Source of the DNA: Nitrospirota bacterium
Lineage (GTDB): Bacteria; Nitrospirota; JACRHJ01
Length of the DNA stretch: 64,000 nucleotides
NCBI GenBank assembly: GCA_963733375.1
Contig: CAVTDB010000003.1
Span: forward strand, 160,001 to 224,000
Direction: 5' to 3'
Under the pieces are notes generated by a model. That model ran no database searches. It saw nothing but the letters and a program-made list of their open reading frames with translations, and had not been told where the DNA came from. Each line of letters starts with the position of its first letter. Position 1 is the stretch's first letter. Of the stretch, positions 1,181-22,616 are shown piece by piece. Both the position numbers and the translations under genes were made by a program.

Positions 1181-3181
1181 TCAGACATACGAGGCGAGCC
1201 TTGCCTCATATTCGGTTAGCCAGCTTCTTTCGTCAGGGCTTAAGTCCTGCCTGCTTTTGAGTGCCAGATATTTGTCGTAGTCTGATTTGTATAGGCCATT
1301 GCTTTTTGTTTTTTTACTTCTTACTATTCCGTCTGCAACCGTCATATGACTGGAGGCAAGCTTTGCCTCCAGTGCCTCGACGTGTTCCGCTATCCTGGGA
1401 ACTGTGGGCACAATCTCATGCCAGGGCAGCACCGCATCCTTGGAGGCGGCCTTGGCCATTTTAACGACCTTTAGAGTCTGGCGCTTAAGGGAGCGTTTCC
1501 TGCGGATGCCTTCCTTCACCGCGTCCATAGTCACCGGGTTGCCGGTAAGCTTTGCCATCGAGTGGACCGCCTCTACCAGCTTAGCTGCGCCCAGGTATTC
1601 GCCACGTGTTGTGTAAACCAAAATCTGAGTGAGGTCGAAGAAGCTGTAGCGTATGCGGACTTTGTCTCGTAAACCGTAAAGGGCCTCGTGGAAGTACTCG
1701 TTGCCGAGGAACCTGATGCCGTTCCTGCCGATGGACGCCGTCTCAACGGATAGCATAAGGTAATCAAGCTCACGTGCATTTATTCCATTACCACGTCCTG
1801 CATTAAGGACCTCGCCCGGTGTGTGCCCATCGAGGCCGCCGTGTGGCTGTGTGCGGTAATATTCCCGCCACTTGCCTATCATGGCCATAGTCTCCGGTAT
1901 TGTGGGTACCCAGTCGTTATGCAGGCTCTTGAGGAATTTTTCATTCCGTTTCATGTAGCCGGGTTTATCCTCTATGGAAGCGCCAGTAAACGAGGGCATT
2001 AGCCTCTCAAACGAATCGGAGAACGTCCCGAAGAAGCGCTCAATCGGTTTGCTCTGCGCGTTATATGGCCAGGCAAAGGACGTAATAATGCCGAGCCTCG
2101 CAAACATCCCGTAGAAGCCGCACTCCTCAAGGCTCAACTCGCTTGTAAATACCTTCGCCTTGAACGCCTTGCCATTGTCGAGCAGGGCTGCCTTCGGAAA
2201 TTTGCCCAGCTCAAGGACTGCATTACGGAGCGCTCCAGCAACGGCCTGGATGTTCTCCTCGACCATAATCTCATAACCTAACAAGTCACGGCTGGCCCAG
2301 TCGTAGAAACCAACGAGTACCGCACGGCAAGGTTTTCCGGTGTACGGGTTTATCACCTGAAAATTAAGCCTGTGGCCGTCGGCGACCAGAACGTCGCCGA
2401 CATCAAGAAGGGATGAATCACGTTTCAGGAACGGGAGCACCTTGTCGTTTAGCGCCTTCTCACCTTCACGGAGCGCAATCCACAGGTCGTAATGGCGCTT
2501 CTTGAAGTTATCGACAAACCGGCGAAGGGTCATGCCTGATGAATGCGAGGGGAGGCCACGGCGTTCCAGAATATACTTTGTCAGTTTTATTGCCGTCTCG
2601 ACCTTGACCTGGTTCTGATGCAGAAGCTGCGTAAGGAGCAGGTTGGCCTCGTCTTCGGTGACCTTCGACCTCTCACCGCGATTATTGGTGGGTCCTGGGG
2701 CCAGGACACGGTAGTCGCTGTCCCCGTCCTTGTATGCCTTCTCCCACCGGTATAGCGTCCCGCGCGAGATGGTGCCCAAAACCTTGAATATCTCCGGAAG
2801 CAGATGGCCGGTATTGTATGAGAGCAGGAAACAGCCCAAAGCGTCTCCTACACTACACGATGCGATAGCGATTTTCTTGTCCTTGTGCCAGGCACCAAGC
2901 AGGTCGGCACGAGCAAGTGCCGATTTTTCGGTCCGTGCGGGCAGGTGCCTTTTATCGGCTGCACATATATTGGAAGATCGAGTCTGGTCCGTTTTACACT
3001 TAAGGTAGTTGTCTTGAACTTCAGGTGGGAGGGCGGAGAGAGGGATCAGGTACTTCCAGCCCGATGTGCCACGAGGGACTTTCTCGGCTGGCATTTTTCC
3101 CAGGCTGATGAGCCTCTGGACCGACCTGACCGTTATTCCCAGGAGGTCCGCTACCTCGGTAATCTCAAGTCTTGATTCCAT
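1181..3181 (-). CDS. MuA-like DDE transposase (element A)
   Basis: 666 aa; N-terminal HTH, VADGH (D), LLDNGKAF (D), SKPIERFF (E), Mu transposase C-terminal GIRF...Y...VRIRY. Confidence 0.92.
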   Translation of the reverse strand: MESRLEITEVADLLGITVRSVQRLISLGKMPAEKVPRGTSGWKYLIPLSALPPEVQDNYLKCKTDQTRSSNICAADKRHLPARTEKSALARADLLGAWHKDKKIAIASCSVGDALGCFLLSYNTGHLLPEIFKVLGTISRGTLYRWEKAYKDGDSDYRVLAPGPTNNRGERSKVTEDEANLLLTQLLHQNQVKVETAIKLTKYILERRGLPSHSSGMTLRRFVDNFKKRHYDLWIALREGEKALNDKVLPFLKRDSSLLDVGDVLVADGHRLNFQVINPYTGKPCRAVLVGFYDWASRDLLGYEIMVEENIQAVAGALRNAVLELGKFPKAALLDNGKAFKAKVFTSELSLEECGFYGMFARLGIITSFAWPYNAQSKPIERFFGTFSDSFERLMPSFTGASIEDKPGYMKRNEKFLKSLHNDWVPTIPETMAMIGKWREYYRTQPHGGLDGHTPGEVLNAGRGNGINARELDYLMLSVETASIGRNGIRFLGNEYFHEALYGLRDKVRIRYSFFDLTQILVYTTRGEYLGAAKLVEAVHSMAKLTGNPVTMDAVKEGIRRKRSLKRQTLKVVKMAKAASKDAVLPWHEIVPTVPRIAEHVEALEAKLASSHMTVADGIVRSKKTKSNGLYKSDYDKYLALKSRQDLSPDERSWLTEYEARLASYV

Positions 3182-7145: not shown

Positions 7146-10100
7146 TCAATTTGATGGATAACATGTAGCTGTGAAACTTGAAATCTGTCCTGCTGATGAT
7201 GTGTTTGAGGAAGTTACATCAGCTCTTATCTGGAAGAACCTCAAGGTTACGGGATTTTGCGTCAAAGGTTGCCAATCGCTCCACGGATCTGTGGCATTGG
7301 ATTTATAACTGATTTCGTATGATACAGTCAGATTTGGCGTGGTTGCCGCTTGCGCGCTTATTATAACCGATTGTATTTGACCCAAATCTATGGAAGAAGT
7401 TGTCCATGAGCCTGAAGATGCTGTCGGGACATCATAATTGATATTAGAGTCATAAACCAAATCAGCGTCATCATAATGATGCTGGGTATCCAATGCCAGA
7501 AGTCCTGCGGGCAGCCAAAATATGCCTGAACCCGTACCGCCAGCCTTAGAAACTATTATTGAATTGCCCGCGCCGGGAATCTCAGTATTTCCTGCACTAT
7601 CTGTCGCTCTAGACTTTAGAGTGTATGATCCGACCGCAGGCTGCACCCACGCATAGCTCCAAATAGCCCAGGTGCCATTGCCGGATGTATCCTGAACGCC
7701 GTCCGACTGGCCCTTCCATGTCGCGCCACCGTCTGTGGAAATTTCGATTTTGGATATTCCTGAGCCTACGGGGTCTGTAGCTGTGCCAGCAATGGTATCG
7801 GTGGCACCGCAAATATAATAAATGACCGCTCCATTTACAGGATTTGTAATTGCCGAGATTGGCGGAATAACGGTTGTCACATTTATGCCTGGCCCTGGAA
7901 ATTCAATATTCCCCTGGTTATCCATTGCCCTCGACTTAATATTAAATTGTCCGTTAGAAGTCGGTGTCCATGTATAGCTCCAATTATCGGTGCCAACCGC
8001 ATCTATCCAGTCAGAACCGTTTATCGATATCTGGACTTTTTTAATCCCCGCACCGCTTCTATCAGTTGCAGTGCCCGATATTGTGTTTGCCCCATTTATG
8101 GTAGCGCCGTTCAGAGGAGAGCTTATTATTGAAGATGGGTCGAAATTAGTCAGTTTCGAAAGGAAATAGCCAGCACCTACATTCCCGTCAAAATCGCTCT
8201 GATTTGTGCCGGAAATGAATATTGATCCGTCGTCTTCTACCGTTATGCCATCTATCGAATCCGCTGAAGTGTTACTAAATATGTATTGCCATATTTCGTT
8301 TCCATTTGGGTCGTACTTAGATGCAAACATATTACCTTCATAATCATATCCTACGACGTATGCATAGCCGTTAAGGTCTAAATCAACATCTCCCGCATAG
8401 GCCAGCTGGTCATTTTTCCATAATTGGTTGCCTTGACTGTCAAGTTTTGAAATATAATCGTCTCCGATTATATAAATATTCCCAGTCTTATCAGTTCTTA
8501 TCGCATTTATGGACTCAGCAAGCATTTTGTTCCATTGTAAGGCACTGTTTCCACTAAATTTTGCCATAAAATTTTGATTATTCATGGTTCCAGATACAAT
8601 TACATTGCCTCCCGGGTCCACGCATATCGGCCCAGAATAATCGAAAGAGCGGGATGAATCTCCGGAAATGCCGTAATTTTCTGTCCAAATATTATTGCCA
8701 TTATTGTCATATTTAGCCAGAACTAAACTCGCAACGTTAATGATTGAGGTTTCGTCTTGAGGATATGTGGTATAACCAGTAATATAGCAGTTACCCGAAC
8801 TATCTATCGCGATTCCCGAGGGAAGAAAGATATGGATTGTTTAATGAATTTGACCATAATAGATTTCCGTTTGGATCATATTTTTGAATATAAGTATTCC
8901 ATCCATCATTAATAGAGACAAAACTATTGCTATTTTGATCCCCAACTATATTTGTTATCCGGTCGTCGTAGTAGGCCCCGGTTATAATCCAGGTTCTATT
9001 CCCTGATGTGTCATATTTTGAAATAAAAGAACTCCCAAAAGATAAACCCGATATATAAAGACTTGCATTTTGATCGCAAGAAATTCCCTCTATACTTGGA
9101 TTTGAAAAATCAGAAAAAACCTTTGTCCATTCTGTTATAGGATTAATGTGATAAATATCTGTTTTCTCCGGTTCAACGTAATCATTGTTTTCGATCCCAA
9201 AATATTTCAATGTGGTATCGCTTAAAATAGGAATGGGCGACTGATATACGGAGGACGCAGTTGTGGGATTCGATCCGTCTGTAGTGTAATATTTCGTAGT
9301 AGTTGATGGAGATAATCTAACCACCTGTCGAAGATTATATGAGCCTCCGGCCGGGGTTGCTGTTGTTGTAGTTATGACCGTCACACCGGGTCCCGGTGTT
9401 TCAATATTTCCCGCTATATCGTAGGCTTCTGTTAAAATTGTAAAGGTTCCACCATCGGGGGGCACTGTCCATAAATAAGTCCAATTTGTCCCTGTAGGTA
9501 AAGTGTAATTCCACGTATTTCCTCCATCAGTAGAAATCGCTAATACGTATGCCCCGGAGCCAGCGCCATCGGATTCTGTACCTGTTATCGTATATGTCTC
9601 ACTGTTACTTATTTGTGCGCCGGGAAGCGGGTCTGTAATTGATGAAACGGGTGGCGTGGTGTCTAAAGTTATCGACGCTTGGTATACTTCAGATACATAA
9701 CCTGAGCTATCTTCATATTTAACAAAAACAGTCTTTAGGCCATCGCCTGATGTTAGTGACCAACTTTTTGTGGTATTATAGGGCTCCCATTGTCCTGTAG
9801 CGAATGACGCATCATTACTTATCATCATTTGAGTTACACCTATTGGTGCATAGGCGTTTAAAGAAAGAGCTACAGTTGGGTAGTTTGTAAACGCCTCCTG
9901 GCTATTAATAATTATAGAGCCTACTGGAAGTGTGCTATTATCAACATCAACCATTACTCCAATAGTCGGTTGTTCAACATTTTCACTGTTATCCGTAGCT
10001 CGCGATTTTAGAAAGTACGTTCCATCCGTCGGCAAAGTCCAGGTGTAGCTCCAATTAGTCGTCCCAGTGGCTTGATTCCAGGTGCTTCCTCCATCAGTTG

Positions 10101-12303
10101 AGATTTCAACTTTTTGGATACCATTGCCAGTCACATCCGTAGCAGTTCCTGAAACCGTATAGCTTGCTCCATTGACTACCGCACCATATGAAGGACTGGC
10201 TATCGTTGAGAAAGGCTCTGCCCGAAATTCGATTGCCCCAATATCAACAGCTGAACCTATAATTCTCGGATTACCCTCAAAATCTGTATCCGGTAAATTA
10301 GGTGCAGAATTATTGCCTATATCTATTAATTGCGAAGAACTATTCAGTCTGAGATCTCCAAAAGCGGAATTAATAAATCCTGCATCATAATTAAAATTAT
10401 TCGACTGAGTAAAAGATGTGCCGTTTTCGAGGTAAACCTTCGCAGGGTCGTAATCGTTGTTCTGGAAATACATGGATGGTGCATCATTATCATAATAACC
10501 GATGTCCCCACCATAGGTTGCTGTATTGTTTTCTAAAATATTATTATAGGCATTGATAACAGAAGAGCCTTCGTTTTGATAATACAATCCTCCGCCTGTC
10601 CCATTCGGTGACGTGCAATTATTTTGCGTAATTGTATTGTTGACAAGATTGATGCTGGCTGCGTAGTCGCTGTATATATAGATACCTCCTCCAAAGTTAC
10701 CTGCTGAATTATTGTAAAGCACATTATTCGTCATCAGGACATTCGAAGAATCGTAACTTTCGAGATATATACCACCACCCTCCGAACCTCCTGACGATGT
10801 ATTTCCTGCTATGGTATTTCCATTAAACGTTAATCCAGCACTATCAGAATAAATATGCAAGCCAGCTCCATCATTACTTGAAGAATTCTGGACCACCGTG
10901 TTTCCAGAGAAATCAAAGGTAGCATCCTCGGCACCAATAAAAATGCCTCCGTAATAACCGGAATTTCCATAAATAATATTATTATTTATCGTATAATTGC
11001 CTTTATAGCCATCAATTAAAACACCAGTACTTAAATTCTGAGCGACAATATTATTACTGAAATCAAGACTACCGTTATCTAAAGATATATAAAGCCCAGC
11101 CTCTTGTCCGCTTCCTTTCGTTATTGTCAATCCTTCTACTGTTATCCCAGAATCGGGCGAATCCGACCAACTATAAATATACAAAACATCGCCTTGTCCT
11201 TCCCCATCAAGCACCGTACCTGTGGGATCTTGGGTAGAACATGTAAAATCTCGACTATAACCGCCGATTAAAACCAATTTATATGGTTGCGCTGAAATAT
11301 ATTGGAATGCTTGATTTTGATTTGCCGATACTTTATATATTCCTTGCGCCAATAAAATTAGATTGTTAGTATTATTAGTCTGCGCCTCGGTTAAGGCGGA
11401 TTGCAGTTCCTGGCTGGTGCTTACTTTGTAAACTACACCGCTTTCATTACCAAAACCTGCGCCATTTATATCGCTCTTTGTAGTAAAGCTCCATATTGGC
11501 CCATCGGACTCCACGTTATGGCTGTCTTTTGCCACCACTTTCCAATAATAGGTAGTATGGAATTGATAGTAATCGAGTGTATAGCTCGTTGCCTCGCCGC
11601 TCCAGACCAAAGGTAAATTGTTAGGGTTCGTCCCGCAATATAAAGAGTATTTCGCAGTCGTATCCGAATCTTGCCAGGTCAATGGGGTATATTTAGGGTT
11701 AATTCCAGTTGAATTGTTGAATGGAGAAGTATAAGTAGGTACATTCGGAGGCAGCGATGACATTGTGGTAAAACTCCACACGGGTCCATCTGACTCCGAA
11801 TTTTGGCTGTCTTTCGCAATTACTTGCCAGTAGTAGGTAGTATGGGATTGATAAGAGTTTAGAGTATAACTTGTCGTAGTGCCGCTCCAGACCAAAGACA
11901 GGCTAGATGGAGATGTTCCGGAATATACATAATACGCCACCGTGTCGCCAGTGTCCGGATCTCCGCCCTGCCAGGTCAATGGTGTCTGCGCCGGATTAAT
12001 GCCTGTCGCATTGTTGAATGGAGAAGTATACGTAGGGACGTTCGGGGGCTGATTTACTGGTGCATCCGGCGTTGTTGTGGCCTGCGTAAGACGGTTCCCC
12101 ACATTATCATAGGTGTAATTAGCGGCCGTTGAATTATTGCCGAAGGTAGTTTTTATGAGTTGGTCGGTTACATCGTAGGTGTGGCGGATAACGTCACTGG
12201 CTGTGCCCCAAACGGGAAATGAAACTATCAGGGCCAGAGCGCATATTGAGGCAACTAGTATAATCTTGTGAATTGATCTTGCCAAGGACTGTACAGGGGT
12301 CAT
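7146..12303 (-). CDS. Large secreted adhesin-like protein (short YD module, FN3-like repeats, beta-helix, Ig-like, SBBP-type propeller); frameshift near 8810
   Basis: Signal peptide; YDVTDQL...YTYDNVGNRLTQ; two PPNVPTYTSPFNN...YYWxV.AKDS repeats; NNTITQN beta-helix ending GNPRIIGSAVDIGAIE; ISTDGG Ig repeats; KYD..GN..W propeller repeats continue into ORF 7146-8621. Confidence 0.75.
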
Positions 12304-12568: not shown

Positions 12569-12985
12569 TCATTTTCCACCTTTAATCATAGTTACGGTAA
12601 AATAAATAAACAGCAAACCTAACATTAAATTAAGCAGGGCGAAAATAATCCCGCTATAAGGAACCACAGAACCGGATACCAATATTCGAGTCCCGTCATA
12701 AATGAAATATCCGCCCGAGAAAAACATAAGAAATCCACTTAGACCAATATAAAGCAGAAAAAACCATTTTGCTGTTTTGTTATTTTTATAGAACAAGAAT
12801 GCCAATAAACTTAACAGAAAAAATTGGCCCAAAGCGACATATACAAGGTAGGACCTGTAGTCGTGTTTCCCTAAATAATTATTAAAAGCGCTTATAACTC
12901 TCACTAAATAATATGACAATACTACGCAGATGATTACTAATTTGTTTCTAAACAACTCGCGTATTATTAACATTGGTTTCCTCAT
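12569..12985 (-). CDS. Putative immunity protein (about 4 TM)
   Basis: Small hydrophobic AT-rich ORF whose ATG overlaps the Rhs stop codon. Confidence 0.6.
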   Translation of the reverse strand: MRKPMLIIRELFRNKLVIICVVLSYYLVRVISAFNNYLGKHDYRSYLVYVALGQFFLLSLLAFLFYKNNKTAKWFFLLYIGLSGFLMFFSGGYFIYDGTRILVSGSVVPYSGIIFALLNLMLGLLFIYFTVTMIKGGK

Positions 12986-15900
12986 TTGCATTTCTTGTTT
13001 ATCTTATCCTCATACTTTTTCAGGGTTTCATTGTAATCGTACCACCATGAATCGTTGAAAGCATCCCATATCCCATAATCTTGGCTTAACTCATACCATT
13101 CATAAGACTTCTGAATGTGCTCTTGGTATTCAGGTGGAGCATTAGGAAAATCAAAATTTTTGAATTTGTCGGCTTCCTTAGATTCTTCTTCTGCTTTCTC
13201 ACAAAACATCTTCCGCATAACATTCCTGAATCCATATGCCATAAAAGGACTAAATAATGGATCTACAACACGTTCGATTATTGTTTTTTCAGCTAAACCC
13301 AAAGGATCAATCCTATTCACAGGGCTGTTGCCTACGAACCCATATAAGTTCAATCCTCCTCTTTCTCTTAATGGGTCTCGTGTCATCCACTTCCCAATTA
13401 TCGGGTTATAAAACCTATACCCGTAGTAATTCGCCCCCAAGCTCGCATAGTAAGGCTTCGTCGAGAACTGATACGGCTGGTCGAGCGTCCCGCTCTTCGA
13501 TACAAGATTTCCAAAGTCGTCGTATTTATATGCCGCAACAACGTTCTGATTGCTGTCAATCACGGCGCTCACATTCCCTTTGCCGTCGTAGAGATAATTA
13601 TAATGCTGCCCGCCCTGAGCCAGTTCTAACAACCCCCCGATACCGCCAGGAGCTTTTGGATTCCAGAAGTAAGAGCGGGACACCGCGTTAGAGCTGTCCC
13701 TCTCCTGCACTACGTTAAAATTGTCATCCCTTATGAAGCGTGTTTCAACGCCATCAATAAATTGTTTTGCAAGCAAACCATCGCCGCTGTAAAAGAACTG
13801 ACAACTATGCTGTACGCTTTGTGAGTCCGTATACGATACAGTGCTCAACCTGTTCTCGGCATCATATGTCGCTGTAGCCGCATACCCGTCAGGCGTAAGC
13901 CAACTGGTCATGTTGCCGTCCGCGTCATAGGTATATGTTCTTGCCGGGTTGGTGGAATTTGTAAGCTGATTAACATTATTGTAGTTGTAATTTACAAGAT
14001 TGTTCGTCAGGCTCATCGGCTGTCCGTTAGTAATCGTCTCCGTGTCACGCATGTCCACGTTCGTTGGCGAATTATAAGTAAAGTCGGCCGCATTTATAAC
14101 TTGCGGTACGCTGTTCATATTAGATACTTCTGTTAGCCTTTGGAGTGGATCATACTGGTAGTTGGTTACGCTCCCATTCGGCCTCGTAAGACTAACAGGA
14201 ATCGGGCTCGGGCTGCCAGTAGAATACGCGGAGGTAAATACACGAGTGCCGCTCGTGATCTTATTTAATCTGCTAATCGTGTCATATCCGTAAGTAATGG
14301 AATCGCCGCCCTGTTGTTGCAGGTTCGCCCTTCTGCCGTTATCATCATACGAGTATGTAAGACTTGGACTGCTATCCCAAGGCGTCTGAACAGTGAGTAG
14401 CTTGGAATTAGCATCATAGCTATAATTCCATGCCCCAATGCCGTCGGTCCGGCTTGTTACGCGGTTATAAGTATCATAGGTGTAGCTAACATTCGGCGTA
14501 GTTTCATCTGAATATGTAATGCCAGTGAGCTTATTATTAGGGTCATATGAATAACTGGCCGTTATGCCCCGTGCATTCTTCTTGCTTATAAGCAGGTCCT
14601 CGCCATCATATACATAGACCTCGCCTTTTCCATCGGCATAAGACTTCCCTACAAGACGGTCGGATGAATCGTAAGAGAACCATGTAACATTGCCATTGGC
14701 ATCAGTCAGCGCCATCATATTACCGTCAGCATCATAGACATATTTGATTATAGTGTTGTCCGGATTTTTAACCTGCGTAAGGTGCTTCGTCGCGTCGTAG
14801 GTGTAATAGGTCGTGCGACCCGACCTGTCGGTATAGCTGTCTATCATTTTGGGGCAGCAGGAAGAATAGGTATATGCCTCCTGCTTTCCATCCGGGTAGG
14901 TTATGCTGGTTATCTGGTCGAGGTCATTATATAAATATGTGAGTATGAGTCCTGTTGTGTCGGTGACAGTTTGGATACGTCCTTTGCTATCATAAGAATA
15001 GCTGTAAAGGACAAGGCCCCCGCGTTCAATTGTGTGAAGCTTGTATTTTGCCGCACCTGTCGGACCGTAATAGGTATAAGTGGTGACGTTGCCAAGAGGG
15101 TTTGTCTTTGACGTTACCTGTCCAAAGCTGTTATATGTATAGCTCGTTTTTTTGCCGAGACGGTCAGTCAAAGAAGTTACATTATGAAAACCATCATAGC
15201 CAAAAGATACGGTTCCGAGACCATTAGAGATACCCGTAAGGTCTACATTATTCCCGGCATAATTCAGGATGGTTGTATTACCTTTGGCGTCTGTTACCGA
15301 AGTCTTATTGCCCATATTGTTATAGGAAAATGAAGTGGTATTACCCTTGGAATCCGTTATGGATGAACGCTCAGTGGTAGCCCAATCATATTGATAAGTG
15401 TTCACCCCGCCGCATTCATAATGCTCGGAATTAATTTCCCCTTTTTCATCTACAAGGACATAGTCGTATAAGGTCTTGGGTACATTGGACATGAAATTGT
15501 TATTTGAGCCATCAGCATATGGAATATAATTATTGGCGCTCACATGCCAACCTTCAATCAAATTTCCATCGTACTGATATTCCTGTTTATTGCCCACAGG
15601 ATTGGTTATAGTAATTCGATAATCCTGATCCATTGTCCCACCGGGCGCGGGATAGTCATTTGAATTATTAGGAATTCCATCCGGAAGTTCAGTATAGAAA
15701 CTCCAGGTTCCTCGCGAATTGCCTATAGAGGAGATATTTATGTTGCTATCGTAAGTCATTGTTGATGTATAACCGCCCATGTCAGTTATGCTTACGAGAT
15801 TTCCGTCGGTATCATATTCAAAAGAAGCGGATCTACCGAATGGGTCGGTTACCTGCTGAACAAGGTTAGCACCCGATTGGTAGGTAAGGGTAGTTACTTG

Positions 15901-17607
15901 ATTTAAGGCATCAGTAATTGTCACAAGCCTTACATTCGAATCGTAACCAAAGTTAAGGCTCTGTCCGTATCGATCTGTTATTTTCGTTAGAAAGGGCTGC
16001 AGAGAGTTCGTTCCGTCGGGAATATTGTATTCATAAACCGTGTCGTCTGGAAAGCGCAAGGTAAAATGATTTTCAGCTATTTTTGTTAAGGTATTGAAAA
16101 CGCCAAACGGACGAATATAGCCCCCGGAACCGTCGGGTGAATAAATATCACGTCTTCCATCCGGCATGAATAAAATCACCTGGCCACCAGTATCTACAAC
16201 AAAATAGCTCCCATAGTTTAACTGCCACTTATTGCCAAAAGGTTCATTTTGGTTTATGGCAGACTGCGAATTATAACTTAGCGTAATTTCAACAGAAGGC
16301 CCAACGGGGCTTTGGTACCACATGGGCGTGTCTTTAACATACATATTCATGTTTATGTTATTAACCCGCCACTTTGGTGAACCGCAGCCGTCGCCGCCAC
16401 CGCTATCACAACAGTCGCCTTCTTCACATTTAGGTGGTCCTAAATCATCTTCGGGCCTAGGTTCTCCACAGCAACCGCCAGTACAGCCCTCCATTTCTGA
16501 TGCAGATAATTTAATGCCTATATTGATGGGGGCATCCTTCGCTTGTAAAATAAGCACGTTCCCGTCCCATTCATTATCAAACTCTTGGGGCGCCTGATGA
16601 AATCTCCTGCCAGCTTGTGGATCAAAAAAGTCAAGACTCTTATCTTTTTTTATCTTATCTAATACCCAATAATGACCACCGTCTCCTGGATTGTGAGATT
16701 TTAACTGTACAATTGAGGGTAAGGGCAATTTGTTCAAGTCATCTTTCGTAATCTTAAGGCCGGCGACGCTATAGCCATATTTCAAAGCGATGTCTTTAAG
16801 TTCCTCCATACTGTAGCCTGAATCCGCAGTTGGTTTCATCATCCGCAGTTCATTTGCCTGTTTCACTTTGCCTTGCTTTTCCATTATGCTCGCCAGAGCA
16901 AGCGTTCCGCAATTCAGCATGGCTCTTTTATGAGCTTTGAAGAGCGACAGTCTATGAATCCAGTGACTGGCGTATGTCCTATCCCTCCAATCATCACTCT
17001 TGATAAGTTTTGTGAAAAGTTTACCGGCCTCGCCAAAGTTATTCTCATAAACCTTTAATACTCCGAGACGGAGCGAAGCTTTATTGACCATTTTCTTCGC
17101 CCCGTCATAAGTATTGTCTTTATCCTTGGTAAGGATTGTAGTGAAATAGGTTTCGGCCTCGCTGTAGCGGCCATTGTATTGAGCGTCGCAACCACAATGC
17201 AGCATGGCTTCCGAAGCCCATGGGCTTCGAGGGTATTCTGTGAGATGCTGCTTTAACAAAGAAGCCGCTTCCTTGTAATTGTGTTTGTTCCATTCCTGCA
17301 TGGCCTTTGCAAAGGACTTGTTAGCCCTGTCTACATCGGCAGCATGCCCTTTGTCTCCAATTGGCTTGATAATATCTTCTGTGGGATAGAGCTGCCCGCC
17401 TAATTGACCAGCTGCCATTATGTCGGTTGCAGTTGGATTTGTGAGGTCAAGGGGTTTTACCGAGTGTTTTACTCTGGGGATTTTAGAATCGGCATATAAA
17501 TAATTTGTATAGGGCGGCGAAAGAAGGAAGAGCAGCGATAAAACAGCTATGACAATAGAAGCTCTAAAAGATAGTTCTCTGCTAAACAATTTCTGCCTCC
17601 TTCGCAA
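12982..17607 (-). CDS. Rhs/YD-repeat protein: signal peptide, TPR, C39 peptidase, Rhs core, C-terminal toxin-like domain
   Basis: TPR (YPRSPWASEAM); C39 motifs NCGTLAL...HYWVL...DFFDP; many YD repeats; Rhs core YGYRFYNPIIGKWMTRDP...NLYGFVGNSPVNRIDPLGL. Confidence 0.92.
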   Translation of the reverse strand: MRRRQKLFSRELSFRASIVIAVLSLLFLLSPPYTNYLYADSKIPRVKHSVKPLDLTNPTATDIMAAGQLGGQLYPTEDIIKPIGDKGHAADVDRANKSFAKAMQEWNKHNYKEAASLLKQHLTEYPRSPWASEAMLHCGCDAQYNGRYSEAETYFTTILTKDKDNTYDGAKKMVNKASLRLGVLKVYENNFGEAGKLFTKLIKSDDWRDRTYASHWIHRLSLFKAHKRAMLNCGTLALASIMEKQGKVKQANELRMMKPTADSGYSMEELKDIALKYGYSVAGLKITKDDLNKLPLPSIVQLKSHNPGDGGHYWVLDKIKKDKSLDFFDPQAGRRFHQAPQEFDNEWDGNVLILQAKDAPINIGIKLSASEMEGCTGGCCGEPRPEDDLGPPKCEEGDCCDSGGGDGCGSPKWRVNNINMNMYVKDTPMWYQSPVGPSVEITLSYNSQSAINQNEPFGNKWQLNYGSYFVVDTGGQVILFMPDGRRDIYSPDGSGGYIRPFGVFNTLTKIAENHFTLRFPDDTVYEYNIPDGTNSLQPFLTKITDRYGQSLNFGYDSNVRLVTITDALNQVTTLTYQSGANLVQQVTDPFGRSASFEYDTDGNLVSITDMGGYTSTMTYDSNINISSIGNSRGTWSFYTELPDGIPNNSNDYPAPGGTMDQDYRITITNPVGNKQEYQYDGNLIEGWHVSANNYIPYADGSNNNFMSNVPKTLYDYVLVDEKGEINSEHYECGGVNTYQYDWATTERSSITDSKGNTTSFSYNNMGNKTSVTDAKGNTTILNYAGNNVDLTGISNGLGTVSFGYDGFHNVTSLTDRLGKKTSYTYNSFGQVTSKTNPLGNVTTYTYYGPTGAAKYKLHTIERGGLVLYSYSYDSKGRIQTVTDTTGLILTYLYNDLDQITSITYPDGKQEAYTYSSCCPKMIDSYTDRSGRTTYYTYDATKHLTQVKNPDNTIIKYVYDADGNMMALTDANGNVTWFSYDSSDRLVGKSYADGKGEVYVYDGEDLLISKKNARGITASYSYDPNNKLTGITYSDETTPNVSYTYDTYNRVTSRTDGIGAWNYSYDANSKLLTVQTPWDSSPSLTYSYDDNGRRANLQQQGGDSITYGYDTISRLNKITSGTRVFTSAYSTGSPSPIPVSLTRPNGSVTNYQYDPLQRLTEVSNMNSVPQVINAADFTYNSPTNVDMRDTETITNGQPMSLTNNLVNYNYNNVNQLTNSTNPARTYTYDADGNMTSWLTPDGYAATATYDAENRLSTVSYTDSQSVQHSCQFFYSGDGLLAKQFIDGVETRFIRDDNFNVVQERDSSNAVSRSYFWNPKAPGGIGGLLELAQGGQHYNYLYDGKGNVSAVIDSNQNVVAAYKYDDFGNLVSKSGTLDQPYQFSTKPYYASLGANYYGYRFYNPIIGKWMTRDPLRERGGLNLYGFVGNSPVNRIDPLGLAEKTIIERVVDPLFSPFMAYGFRNVMRKMFCEKAEEESKEADKFKNFDFPNAPPEYQEHIQKSYEWYELSQDYGIWDAFNDSWWYDYNETLKKYEDKINKKCK

Positions 17608-18374: not shown

Positions 18375-20291
18375 TTATAGAACGGGTGCAAAAATCTGTA
18401 TCTCCATAGGTGCAAGGTTTACATCCAGTGCGGCTGTGTCACTCGTGCCCTTCAAATTACCCGGACTGTCATAAAATTTTGCCTGGTTTATTATCCGTGC
18501 CGTAGCCGTACCGGATGTTCCGAGGTTGCTATAGACCAGGGACATCTTCCTCGGCGGCCGATTCAGGTCTAGGTCAAGCAGGATTTGGCCTTGGAAGTTC
18601 TGAGTAGGGCTGGTATTTGCGGCAATCATTATCTCGCGGTTATAAAGTATTCGAGAGAATGCCAACATGCCGCCTTTCCCGAACGAATGACCGAAATCAG
18701 ATCCGTTGCCTGATATTTCTCTGAAATATATCCTTCCATAACGGATGGCGGGCTCGCTCATGCGCAAACGCGCAATGGCCTGTATGTGTACAAACAGGGG
18801 GTTCGTTTGGTCGAATGCGGAAGGCCCTTTGCCCCAGAGCGCTTCACGGACCGATTCCAAGCTCCCATTGGCATCGATAGTCCCCTGTAGCCCTTGCTCC
18901 GTCCCATAGTACAGGCAGGGGACCCCTTGCAGACAAAAAAGCGCCGTTAAACCCAGACTGACCTGCTCTTTGGGAGTAGCTATATTATTAAATCGTCCCG
19001 GCTGATCATGGTTATCCAGGAAACTTACAAAATATTTGCCAGCTTCGCCATGCGAGCTGATAAGTCCTGTCTCCGCCTTTTTTCGGTTCTCAAAAACGGC
19101 GCGAACCTTCTCAACCTCGCAAAGTCCCTTGGCAGCCCAAGGCAAATTATAGAATGTCGGAAAATCAAGGGCCGCGTCGAGTCCGAAACCATCGACAGCG
19201 GAACTATGTCGCCCGATAAACTCATCGATAATGCTTTCCTGGTCGTAGACTTCAGCGAACGTAAAGAAATTCTTTTTGCCTATGCTCAACGCGAATTCTC
19301 TCATAGCGTTGCCAAATGTCTGTATCGCATCCGGGGCCACGTATTTTACGGTATCGAGCCTGAAACCATCAATGTCGTATTTTGCAATCATATTCTGGTA
19401 TATGCGGATAAGGATATTCAGCACAGGACTTCTGCCATATTTGTTGAGTAGGCCCGGTTGCGCGGGCTGTGCCGCGTCGTATTCCACGACGAGCTGGCGC
19501 ATTGTGCCGAAGTCTCCACGCACAAAACCATCGGGCGGAGGAGCATCTGTAAGTTTGTCCCCTCTTCTACGGAAAAATTCCTTTACTTGCAAGTCCGACG
19601 GCCAAACTGCATCGTCAGGAGAGAGCTTAAAACCGGAAGGAATATCATTCAATAAATTCGATTGCGGTTTTCCAGTTCGGTCTATCCACTCTATCGGAGG
19701 CTCCTGTCCAAAAGGGGCATCCATTATCTGCTGGCTTGCAAACTCGTTTACGAGAGAACCATTCAGTACGTAATTAAAAACCTGCGCCGAATGGTTCAGT
19801 ACGATGTCCAGGATTATGTAAATACCCCTTGCATGGGCCTCTTCCACCAATTCATTTAATTCCCGCTCGGCGGTAGCAACGGTGTGGTCGGATGCAAAGC
19901 GCGGGTCCAAATTCAAAAAATCCTGAATGGCATAACCGTAATAGGTGTTACTCCATTTTGCGTTTTTAAGTACCGGGCTCAGCCATATAGCCTTCGCTCC
20001 AAGGTTTTCGATGTAGCCAAGCTGCTCCTTCACGCCTTTAAATGTCCCGCCCTGCCAGCCGTCACATCTTTGGTTCCATGTAAATTGGGGGGGCACATCG
20101 GGATTATTGAAGCGATCCATCATTAAAAAATAGATCCAGCAATCACGCCAATCTTCGGGGGAAGGGAATGGATACGGAATAACTTTACTTACACCATCTA
20201 CAACAATCGTTTTTGTTTTTCCGTTCTTTGCCGCCTCCATTACATCATGTTCAATCTGGATCAATTCCGGACTTAAAATTTCCGTGGCCAT
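18375..20291 (-). CDS. GH13 alpha-amylase family glycoside hydrolase
   Basis: IYFLMMDRF, GGTFKG, DIVLNH, IDGFRLDTVKY (nucleophile), FAEVY, FLDNHD, PCLYYGTEQ. Confidence 0.92.
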   Translation of the reverse strand: MATEILSPELIQIEHDVMEAAKNGKTKTIVVDGVSKVIPYPFPSPEDWRDCWIYFLMMDRFNNPDVPPQFTWNQRCDGWQGGTFKGVKEQLGYIENLGAKAIWLSPVLKNAKWSNTYYGYAIQDFLNLDPRFASDHTVATAERELNELVEEAHARGIYIILDIVLNHSAQVFNYVLNGSLVNEFASQQIMDAPFGQEPPIEWIDRTGKPQSNLLNDIPSGFKLSPDDAVWPSDLQVKEFFRRRGDKLTDAPPPDGFVRGDFGTMRQLVVEYDAAQPAQPGLLNKYGRSPVLNILIRIYQNMIAKYDIDGFRLDTVKYVAPDAIQTFGNAMREFALSIGKKNFFTFAEVYDQESIIDEFIGRHSSAVDGFGLDAALDFPTFYNLPWAAKGLCEVEKVRAVFENRKKAETGLISSHGEAGKYFVSFLDNHDQPGRFNNIATPKEQVSLGLTALFCLQGVPCLYYGTEQGLQGTIDANGSLESVREALWGKGPSAFDQTNPLFVHIQAIARLRMSEPAIRYGRIYFREISGNGSDFGHSFGKGGMLAFSRILYNREIMIAANTSPTQNFQGQILLDLDLNRPPRKMSLVYSNLGTSGTATARIINQAKFYDSPGNLKGTSDTAALDVNLAPMEIQIFAPVL

Positions 20292-20673: not shown

Positions 20674-22616
20674 CGACAACCCCTTCGTGCCAGCCACTCC
20701 CGTCACGCCAGTAATGCTGCAGTTTATTATCAGTACGGAGCACAATAACTTCGAGATTAAACCCATAGCTTCCCTCAACCAAAGCGATAACTGCCCACAC
20801 ATCATGGCCGAAGGTGGCGCTTTGACGCCAGAGCATATCGCTGGAGTTAGCACACCACCAATGCTGTACGGTTCCCCCCGAAGTAGCAACACAGAGTTCA
20901 AAGTTTCCTACGGACGTTCTCGTCTTTAGCACCGTATTGTCCTTCAATCATGCAGGGGGGACTACTGACACTACTTCCAAAATTTGCACCTTCCTTCCAT
21001 GCCATACCATGGTCATTATCACGCCGCCAGTGTTGCATCTTTCCGGAGCTCAAAACACATACCAGTTCAAAATTGCCTTTATTATAATAATGGCTTTGTA
21101 TTAGTGTGGCTCCGCTGTGCATTACGTCGCTGGCAAAGCGACCGCCGTCGTGCCAACCCGCCCCATCTCGCCACCAATGATTCAACTTGCTGTCCGCCGT
21201 ACGTACCACGACTTCAAAGTTTCCGGGAGCATTATAATTACTTTGAATAAATCCAGGAACTCCTGCCGCATCGCTTGGACCGAAAATTCCTCCGTCGTTC
21301 CATTTCTGGCTTGACTGATCAAACCACCAATGATGAAGGCGTCCCGAACGTGTTAGATGGACAGACTCAAAATTGCGGTTAAAGGTAGTGCCTATGAATG
21401 TGGGACAGGACTTCAACGTATCATTTCCAAAAAGCGGCCCTTGGTGCCAGGGAAAACCTGTAGCCGAGTTGTCTCTCCACCAATGCCTGATCTGATTGCC
21501 CGGAGCTGCGGTCAACATCTCGAAATTCCGGTGCAAGGCTCCATTACCGCTTTCAATCATGCAGCCACTGTGAATGCGCCTTTTTGTCCATGGATCAGGA
21601 TTTGTACCCTGAAAACCTAACTTAGCGTAGGAATCAATGTCACATTCACCATAGCCGATACGGCCAAAACCACCCTGACCCCATGCAGGCCCCCAGGAGT
21701 TCTTTACAATCCAACAACTTAGAGAATCATCATAGCCGATGATCAACATAAAATGTCCACCCTCGGCTTTGTTAGGGGTAAACCCTATCATGTTTTGTTT
21801 GTGATAAACACCGGTGCCATATGAAAAGAAATCATCCCAGACTTCGATAAAAGTAGTTATGGGTCCGACAGTATCCAGCCATTTTTTCTGGTCAGCAATA
21901 TTACCAATTGGCGTATAATCCGGTATTTTGATCGTGCGGCCTGAGCGATCCGCTGTAGGTGTGTAGGCGACTTGGTCATACGGTCCGCCGCCCGTACCAC
22001 CGCAGCCTGAACATCCCGATGATGTAACAGGCCAAGCAAAGCAACCTGGATCGGCCGCACCATGATCCTTCATCCAGTCCAAAGCAGCGCCAGGGTTGCC
22101 GCAATCACAGCAGTGGCTACCCATACCCTTATGAACATCTCCTTCTGATATCCAGGGCCAAACGCAGTGCTCAATTCGGGCCATTGCTTCCACGAGGGCT
22201 ACCGCAGTGAAACACCAACAAGCCTCACAACCATTCTGATCGCGAAAACTGGTAATCCACGGCCAACCCCACCTGTTGCGCCAATCGAGGCTTGCCGGCA
22301 CTGTGCCTCCCGACGGTAAAATTCCCTCTCCGGGTTCTATTTCAGGCAGAGAACCTAAATGAAACTCTTTTTTGACGACAGATTCAGGAATGATGCCATG
22401 CGCTATCCTACGCTGAAGGATAAAAGGATTATTTGGTTGGATCTTAAAAAGATTTATAAAGTCGATTGGCTTTACATCTACCGATCGTATTAAACCCTCC
22501 TTTAGACCGCCTAGTGTACGTACAGGAATGTCCTGAATATCCAGAAGATTATCATTAACGGACCATCTTGCTTTGTTCTTTTCAAGAGTTTCCCTCAGAT
22601 CTTTTATTTTCGGCAT
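20660..22616 (-). CDS. Papain-family (C1A) cysteine protease with C-terminal Trp-rich repeat domain (frameshift near 20910)
   Basis: SLDWR, DQNGCEACWCF, GGHFMLIIGY, VKNSWG..WG..GF; GNFE.VV...L.HWWRD repeats continue in ORF 20660-20947. Confidence 0.88.

Follow-up and report, generated by a model that had tools for sequence, protein, structure and literature searches.

A C39 peptidase domain with its own adjoining double-glycine site probably removes the N-terminal head of a Sec-exported Rhs toxin

How Rhs toxin cages outside T6SS, the type VI secretion system, are matured and released is largely unknown. The question is raised in a particular form by a gene in a stretch of 64,000 nucleotides from a Nitrospirota bacterium (assembly GCA_963733375.1, contig CAVTDB010000003.1, positions 160,001 to 224,000; the whole stretch is here called the window), which encodes an Rhs protein with a peptidase C39 domain near its N-terminus and, just after this domain, a sequence resembling a bacteriocin leader of the double-glycine type. 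Does this protein cut itself? Coordinates given here are positions in the window, and residues are numbered in the 1541 amino acid (aa) translation of 12982-17607 on the minus strand, on which all parts of the gene lie. Hundreds of relatives retain both the C39 protease and its own adjoining double-glycine site, so that self-removal of the toxin's front part is probable. Sequence comparison and modelling make it likely that a Cys233-dependent cut at the junction GG/CC removes a prodomain composed of tetratricopeptide repeats (TPR) and the C39 domain, most of this likelihood belonging to a cut in cis. The family appears to import the pairing of bacteriocin leader and C39 peptidase for N-terminal processing.

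The first-pass annotation of this stretch had named the C39 catalytic motifs, and translation of 12982-17607 places them as it described: MLNCG contains Cys233 (16909-16911), GGHYWVL contains His312 (16672-16674), and FFDP contains Asp329 (16621-16623), in a domain spanning aa 225-357 (16537-16935). Pfam assigns Peptidase_C39 (PF03412; MEROPS C39) to aa 232-357 with E 9.6e-18 and 64.7 bits (cut-off 22); the genome search scored it at 70.1 bits. NCBIfam has a weak match to C39_FapD (E 9.2e-4). The top Foldseek matches of the fold are the peptidase domains of PCAT1, ComA, LahT150, and StbD, at template modelling scores (TMt) of 0.65-0.74; among the entries matched, 7n87, 5xe8, 6mpz, and 3k8u have a probability of 1.00 and TMt of 0.70-0.74, indicating the papain-like peptidase fold of the peptidase-containing ATP-binding cassette (ABC) transporters (PCATs). 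Across the family, the catalytic Cys is present in 231 of 231 C39 segments, the His in 224, and the Asp in 220, being otherwise N (four), E (two), or V (one). Four of the missing His residues are alignment gaps arising from an insertion, and in two of these proteins (P0236 and P0242) the His was found by BLAST. No ABC transmembrane or ATPase domains were found in the Rhs protein with Pfam and NCBIfam, the full-length PCAT models of the latter scoring far under their cut-off (30.8 against 853 bits). In addition, no other C39 domain or Rhs gene was found in the source genome, which is 81 % complete; there being one C39 domain and one Rhs gene in this assembly, no PCAT-type partner was found for the motif.

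The leader-like motif that had been reported from the letters, LSASEMEGCTGG, is present exactly at aa 367-378 (16474-16509), with the predicted scissile bond, G378/C379, between 16474 and 16473. Its place is inside a protein of 1541 aa and not at the start of a small exported peptide. When the N-termini of 120 sequences were aligned without reference to the motif, the site was conserved beside the catalytic residues (Cys233 in 119 of 119, His312 in 113 of 113, and Asp329 in 112 of 113). Counting back from the predicted cut, L367 (-12) is kept in 101 of 112 sequences, with M in six and I in five, E371 (-8) in 90 of 112, and M372 (-7) is M in 73 and L in 14 of 112; position 375 (-4) is I in 39, L in 16, F in 12, and V in 12. 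G377 (-2) is found in 110 of 112, G378 (-1) is G in 100 and A in 12, and C379, C380, and G381 on the far side are each found in 112 of 112. A further alignment (A2; 115 sequences, 24-55 % identity to the query segment) adds distant representatives, and within aa 215-385 its only invariant columns are C233, H312, D329, G377, C379, C380, and G381. These are joined by G234 and P297 in a 63-row subset (A3). The motif is therefore kept together with the C39 triad family-wide, and the cleavage site proposed by the first-pass annotation does not fail for want of conservation.

Likewise, among 266 proteins fetched, 210 span the region from C39 to the N-terminal plug of the Rhs shell, and G-[GAST]-C stands between them in 205 of the 210; in 205 of 210 the modules also follow the order TPR, C39, motif, plug. 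The five exceptions are two proteins reading AGCCG or CGCCG, one with GGCCG outside the interval searched, and two without the Cys, P0154 (GGNGG) and P0243 (GTGY). A site profile of the 205 proteins, anchored on this pattern so that G at -2 and C at +1 are fixed by construction, has L at -12 in 164, E at -8 in 144 (and D in 16), M or L at -7 in 136, I, L, V, or F at -4 in 133, and G, A, S, and T at -1 in 182, 17, four, and two, respectively. A strict pattern, L-x3-E-[LMIV]-x2-[ILVFM]-x-G-[GAS], matches the site after C39 in 64 of the 210 proteins, and only one other match occurs in the 305,971 residues of these proteins, which excludes chance. In a divergent clade (P0211, P0228, P0236, P0242, P0257, and P0268) C39 carries a large insertion and the P2′ residue differs, yet LSxxEMxxIxG[GAT]C[YF] is kept.

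The likeness to leaders of bacteriocins and of ribosomally synthesised and post-translationally modified peptides, which had been pointed out when the motif was first noticed, agrees with the published recognition code of C39 peptidases. As described for ComA, the consensus is Leu(-12)-x3-Glu(-8)-Leu(-7), with a hydrophobic residue at -4, before Gly-Gly/Ala/Ser (PMC6363468), and the family motif matches this code at each position: L at -12, E at -8, M/L at -7, hydrophobic at -4, G at -2, and G/A/S at -1. The query has L, E, M, C, G, and G at these six positions. An NCBIfam scan of 41 aa and 68 aa segments containing the motif, which are short for such a scan, gave no family at E of 10 or less.

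Conservation continues past the predicted cut. The stretch right after the motif is CCGEPRPEDDLGPPKCEEGDCCDSGGGDGC (aa 379-408), next to which the Rhs shell begins. Its first part, the P′ side CCGEPRPEDDLGPP (aa 379-392; 16432-16473), has C379, C380, G381, and G390 invariant or nearly so, and its 14 conserved residues suggest that the new N-terminus would have a role of its own. The second part (aa 393-408; 16384-16431) is a linker of Cys, Gly, and acidic residues that varies in length and composition among relatives and is modelled at a predicted local distance difference test (pLDDT) of 35-60. A Cys-rich segment following the motif had been described as a unit; only C379-C380-G381 and the PRPExDLG stretch of it are conserved, CC being all that is kept of the proposed cluster of cysteines, whereas the CEEGDCCDSGGGDGC part falls in the variable linker. 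The spacing from C39 to the motif is short and fixed in nearly all members. Split forms, with a free TPR-C39 protein and an Rhs protein starting at the leader, were not seen among the short matches, no dedicated search for them having been made; the short matches that reach the site run on past GGCCG and look like contig-end fragments.

Modelling with AlphaFold2 (AF2) places the motif on the peptidase. For aa 40-480 (81-row alignment), the mean pLDDT is 84.4 and the predicted template modelling score 0.82, with the TPR and C39 domains at 90-98; the blocks containing the motif, aa 360-369 and 370-379, have pLDDT of 92 and 91, and the next block, just past GG/CC, has 56. For aa 215-385, modelled without the TPR (63 rows), the mean is 91.8 and the block aa 365-374 reaches 98, but the block with the GG/CC junction has 70 and the one after it 51. 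Packing of the leader helix on the TPR instead of on C39 was considered and rejected, since the pLDDT is still 98 in the model that has no TPR. In both models aa 369-374 (-10 to -5) are helical, and aa 376-377 form a strand or bridge. In the crystal of LahT150 with a leader, positions -1 to -3 are linear and -4 to -11 are helical (PMC6363468), and the modelled secondary structure of the motif is like that of this leader. As modelled, the motif is bound to C39 itself; the docking for which an AlphaFold check had been suggested is thus confident by AF2 pLDDT. A complex prediction of C39 (A1 residues 150-322) against the leader segment (323-362) scored 0.27 and 0.22, with the mark at 0.32, and, having no controls, it counts neither way.

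The gene begins with TTG and is uninterrupted by a stop codon; the database entry of the protein (P0003) has 1535 aa, starting six codons downstream. By eye, the 1541 aa sequence opens with a Sec-type signal peptide (aa 1-39; 17491-17607) that has a basic n-region, a hydrophobic core, and ...LYA/DSK at its end. A hydrophobic stretch within the first 70 residues is also found in 132 of the 163 full-length relatives that start with M, and many of these have AxA-type ends. The signal peptide and the hydrophobic stretch in the relatives indicate that the Rhs protein is Sec-exported and therefore extracytoplasmic, in contrast to the C39 domains of PCAT exporters. Ahead of C39 is a YbgF/BamD-like TPR domain (aa 93-215; 16963-17331), supported by NCBIfam (tol_pal_ybgF, E 2.1e-6; BamD, E 1.8e-5), by weak TPR/YfiO matches at aa 95-167 in Pfam, and by a Foldseek match to 2xev_C (YbgF; TMt 0.78). 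This domain may hold the precursor at an envelope partner. Its residues H137 and C140 (17188-17199) are invariant in alignment A1.

The proposed course of events is as follows. A polymorphic Rhs toxin would be exported by Sec, with the TPR-C39 module as a built-in 'releasing' protease that brings its own substrate. After export and folding, aa 365-378 would occupy the groove in which the C39 domain of its own chain binds substrate, as a PCAT peptidase takes up a bacteriocin leader: L367, M372, and residue 375 would fill the hydrophobic groove, and G377-G378 would run through the narrow channel of the active site. Cys233, His312, and Asp329 would cut after G378, Cys233 attacking the G378 carbonyl. 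The TPR-C39 head, ending in ...GG, would then separate from the Rhs cage, whose new N-terminus would be CCGxPRPExDLG. In this way the C39 cut would stand in for the autocleavage by which T6SS Rhs proteins intrinsically process their N-terminus, and the C-terminal toxin would be freed inside the cage by the ordinary cut at DPLGL. What the analysis shows is the order of the domains, the intact triad, the motif's conservation and agreement with the code, and its confident docking in the model; the actual scission of the bond, its occurrence in cis, and its place and time are what we infer.

A number of points weigh against this proposal. The strict pattern is matched by only the 64 of 210 relatives counted above (115 of 210 for a loose form), and position -4 of the query is Cys, not an aliphatic residue. 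The Gln that lies six residues before the catalytic Cys in LahT150 (Gln21), a proposed oxyanion residue whose role is doubted by PMC6363468 itself, is Lys227 in the query, and Gln is found there in only 33 of 231 relatives. In the C39 systems known so far, the leader forms the N-terminus of a small peptide and is removed in the cytoplasm, whereas this site lies within a long chain and its enzyme is outside the cytoplasm, a setting in which a thiol protease may become oxidised. For every member of the family the cleavage reading rests on comparison and models, and the docking is read from pLDDT and secondary structure, not from the distance between Cys233 and the scissile carbonyl. Furthermore, a conserved, bound segment is equally what would be expected of a pseudo-substrate that is not cleaved.

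One possibility concerns what follows the cut or takes its place. The Cys-Cys pair at P1′-P2′ (aa 379-380; 16468-16473) might be bound, through a disulfide or a metal, to C140/H137 or to Cys233, giving a nicked but tethered two-chain toxin with a redox trigger. After the cut, or instead of it, the cage may leave the TPR-C39 head only on thiol reduction. We regard this as rather doubtful. If it were true, an Rhs protein with a bacteriocin-leader protease would work on the same principle as nicked AB toxins joined by a disulfide and as the redox-gated StbD.

The pseudo-substrate named above would act as a latch: the leader-like segment would sit permanently in the C39 groove, uncut, and would keep the protease shut, or the TPR-C39 head stapled to the cage, until the destination is reached, the real C39 substrates being other proteins, for example in the target cell. 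The conservation and docking data fit this equally, and C39 domains can be toxins with protein targets, as in Tox-PL-C39 (PMC3482391) and in StbD-CT, which cuts GyrB/ParE (bioRxiv 10.64898/2026.05.07.723447). However, pseudo-substrates usually spoil the scissile residues, whereas P2 and P1 here stay in the permitted G-G/A/S set in the 205-protein profile, with the provisos on that profile given above. Moreover, this C39 domain sits N-terminally, outside the cage, and the slot of the C-terminal toxin is taken by polymorphic domains; in StbD the GG linker adjoining C39 is cut (bioRxiv 10.64898/2026.05.07.723447). A latch is therefore unlikely.

The cut could also be made in trans, between Rhs molecules, or mainly on another secreted protein. 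C39 peptidases normally act on separate peptides (PMC6363468), and a candidate for a separate substrate exists in the neighbourhood. Downstream of the Rhs gene, at 8800-12303 on the minus strand, is a gene for a secreted protein of 1167 aa, a candidate partner, which in its mature form opens with one double YD repeat and continues with Fn3/Big/beta-helix modules. In a sample of 45 loci of at least 7 kb with an open reading frame (ORF) of the family (44 fetched, and the window), a large secreted neighbour belonging to one BLAST cluster was found in 29 loci, mostly at +1 or +2 and on the same strand (for example L023:1538-8818 and L003:6633-9776). In 17 of 30 members of this cluster a single double YD repeat, with the consensus ETINYTYDxMxRLTxVxYxDGTxVxYVYDxLGNRL, comes directly past the signal peptide and is followed by Fn3/PKD/Ig/Big/beta-helix modules. 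The neighbour may be a partner or an adhesin of the Rhs cage. As a substrate it is less convincing, since 17 aligned sequences show no leader-like motif at its mature N-terminus, the YD repeat following the signal peptide directly. With regard to a cut between Rhs molecules, in the AF2 model the motif is docked, at pLDDT 98, on the C39 domain of its own chain, the motif trails C39 at its fixed short distance in nearly all members, and the auto-processing of StbD is reported as cis in figure legend 4F (bioRxiv 10.64898/2026.05.07.723447). Cleavage in trans, or mainly of another protein, is consequently improbable.

Least probable is that there is no proteolysis. GGCCG would then combine with H137 and C140 of the TPR in a disulfide or metal site of structural use, holding head and linker together, and the leader likeness would be convergent. 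C140 and the CC pair do tend to vanish together, but such a site would leave L-12, E-8, M-7, the hydrophobic -4, and the invariant triad unexplained, and a cross-link and a cut are mutually compatible. Of 241 proteins, C140 and CC are both present in 226 and both absent in ten; four lack C140 only, of which three read CCC, and one lacks CC only. This co-loss was rejected as evidence; on a shell-based tree it comes down to four and three changes, with two independent pairs on supported branches, and is not significant (median p 0.5). As a lead, it hints at a disulfide or metal link from the TPR to P1′/P2′, as the tethered, redox-released toxin would have.

Self-cleavage by the C39 domain at its own double-glycine site is thus the preferred reading, and the remainder of the protein can be set out around it. 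Between the signal peptide and the TPR is a conserved N-terminal segment, VKPLDL...MAAGQLGGQLYPT (aa 50-76; 17380-17460), in which G67, Q68, G70, G71, L73, and T76 are invariant in alignment A1 and the pLDDT is about 90. It holds a second invariant glycine pair (...EELMAAGQLGGQLYPT), duplicated in P0014 and P0040. The GQLGG here was considered as a second canonical C39 site and rejected, its consensus at -4, -7, -8, and -12 being Q, A, M, and T, which is off the code. Also in this part of the protein, between the signal peptide and the TPR, seven relatives (P0011, P0028, P0036, P0042, P0045, P0047, and P0065) have an extra glycoside-hydrolase-like domain (PF02836, sometimes PF03198), which indicates that the prodomain is able to hold further modules. 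Additional Pfam domains differ from relative to relative.

After the linker come the start of the Rhs shell with its N-terminal plug (aa 409-487; 16147-16383; DUF6531 at 438-487 in Pfam) and the RHS/YD-repeat shell (aa 488-1361; 13525-16146), in which Pfam finds 13 stretches of RHS repeats (E 4.3e-75) and NCBIfam finds YD_repeat_2x (E 5.1e-53). Within the shell is a second vicinal Cys-Cys, in YSSCCPKM (aa 917-918; 14854-14859), which is the majority consensus in A1; a strict pattern picks it up in 76 of 211 long relatives. The Rhs-associated core follows (aa 1362-1438; 13294-13524; TIGR03696, E 7e-19, NCBIfam). The usual DPxG cleavage element, which had been assumed to act besides the C39 cut, is present in this core: DPLRE lies at 1411, and DPLGL, where C-terminal aspartyl autocleavage usually takes place (PMC8636562), at 1434-1438. 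The last domain, a putative toxin of about 103 aa (12985-13293), is rich in W, Y, E, and K; it has no Pfam family, and ESM Atlas gave no usable match. Overlapping the Rhs stop codon by 10 nt is a hydrophobic, multi-pass membrane ORF of 140 aa (12569-12991, minus strand) with no Pfam family, which by position only is a candidate immunity gene. A membrane-embedded immunity protein, if this is one, hints at a toxin that acts on membranes.

The family is widely but thinly spread. A word-indexed search with aa 40-470 gave 234 proteins of 847-2697 aa, and the best 120 of the 234 all have PF03412 and PF05593 at 46-56 % identity; the source names of relatives include Nitrospirae, Desulfobacterales, Thermodesulfobacteriota, Scalindua, Kiritimatiellales, and Poribacteria, among others. 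An exhaustive phmmer search of 1.84 billion representatives gave 612 proteins at E of 1e-3 or less, 120 of them at 1e-30 or less. In all, going by source names, hundreds of members are known from Nitrospirota, Desulfobacterota, Planctomycetota, Verrucomicrobiota, and further uncultured anaerobes. A search with the first 262 residues of the shell gave 786 matches; C39 is present in 117 of the best 120, and the other three are 5′-truncated gene calls that start inside the plug, supporting the view that this subfamily of shells always has a TPR-C39 head. In 401 sampled genomes of the same phylum a true relative is found only in the source genome and in G399 (E 1e-116; the next best match is 1e-10), and two genomes of the same genus have no relative. 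The first 40 residues of the G399 copy are the same as those of P0043, labelled Nitrospirae at NCBI.

The block of Rhs, immunity, and partner genes, at 8-18 kb, has a G+C of 0.40-0.44, against about 0.5 or more around it, and a Mu-type transposase (Mu-transpos_C, rve) is encoded at 1181-3181 on the minus strand, 5.6 kb beyond the partner gene. The block looks like an acquired island carrying a mobile toxin, a view that fits the patchy distribution, the lower G+C, and the transposase. On the other side of the Rhs gene, 3.3 kb upstream and on the same strand, is a gene for a 572 aa protein whose C1 peptidase domain is of the papain family (E 2.4e-29; 20898-22616, minus strand), and an alpha-amylase-family gene (18375-20291) lies between it and the Rhs gene.

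If self-cleavage is confirmed, this would be the first C39 peptidase to serve as a 'releasing peptidase' in cis on a very large cargo, and the double-glycine code would be extended from small peptides to internal sites of giant proteins. Cys233, G377/G378, and C379/C380 would then give a simple handle on Rhs maturation outside T6SS, and a self-excising cassette of TPR, C39, and leader with a defined P1′ could find use as a protein-engineering tag.

Several known systems resemble parts of this arrangement. In T6SS Rhs proteins, Asp-dependent autocleavage occurs just before the N-terminal plug at P[VI]xxxxGE, for example PVYVASGE in Rhs1 of P. laumondii and PVSMVTGE in A. dhakensis (PMC8636562). 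The GG site here is in an equivalent place, about 30 residues ahead of the plug, and a cut there would likewise part the cage from a head used for delivery or as adaptor; the DPLGL cut on the C-terminal side is shared as well. In the T6SS effectors, however, the proteolysis is intrinsic and Asp-dependent, whereas here a dedicated cysteine peptidase domain would make the cut. P[VI]xxxxGE does not occur in the query and was found in one of 224 relatives within 250 aa after GGCC. There is no PAAR in the protein, and neither PAAR nor a VipB/TssC sheath match was found in the 81 % complete genome.

With the peptidase domains of the ABC-transporter maturation and secretion (AMS) or PCAT type (LahT150, ComA, PCAT1; PF03412), the Rhs C39 shares the fold (TMt 0.70-0.74), the Cys/His/Asp triad, a recognition code beside a Gly-Gly/Ala/Ser site, and, as modelled, the helix-plus-extended mode of binding. 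Unlike them, it is not fused to an ABC transporter, appears to be Sec-exported and extracytoplasmic, and does not conserve the Gln at -6. Its motif is internal, on the same chain and on the C-terminal side of the enzyme, and a cage of about 130 kDa takes the place of the peptide cargo. FapD, from the Fap amyloid system of Pseudomonas, is a C39 peptidase active in the periplasm and so offers a case of such an enzyme working outside the cytoplasm (PMC5557850). It differs in being free-standing, with an unidentified substrate and no canonical leader, whereas in the Rhs protein the enzyme and a canonical motif are fused.

Proteases built into polymorphic toxins that free part of the toxin have been described as releasing peptidases, and include HINT, ZU5, PrsW, caspase, MCF1-SHE, subtilisin, PVC-metallopeptidase, and OTU (Zhang et al., 2012; PMC3482391). 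The same source lists Sec/T2SS-dependent (T2SS, type II secretion system) Rhs toxins with TPR repeats. C39 is included there only as a C-terminal toxin (Tox-PL-C39), and the term 'double-glycine' is absent from its main text. The closest parallel is StbD-CT, a CdiA-like C39 toxin of Citrobacter rodentium (PDB 8ssk/8ssm), which cuts its own chain after Gly157-Gly158 in the adjacent linker; the cut depends on the catalytic Cys, occurs under reducing conditions only, and is in cis according to the figure legend (bioRxiv 10.64898/2026.05.07.723447). Both are C39 domains in polymorphic toxins with a di-glycine site, and they match structurally by Foldseek. In StbD, however, the C39 domain serves as the C-terminal toxin, with the GG on its N-terminal side, whereas the C39 domain described here is an N-terminal prodomain with its site on the C-terminal side, the site has the full leader-type code and an invariant Cys-Cys at P1′-P2′, and the carrier is Rhs, not CdiA. 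No paper on C39 as an N-terminal processing module of an Rhs protein was found, in a search that left subscription journals and supplements outside its scope, and 'peptidase C39' together with 'RHS repeat' gave no papers. Releasing peptidases as a kind, and auto-processing by the C39 domain of StbD, are therefore already known; what would be new is the pairing of C39 and double-glycine motif in the head of an Rhs protein.

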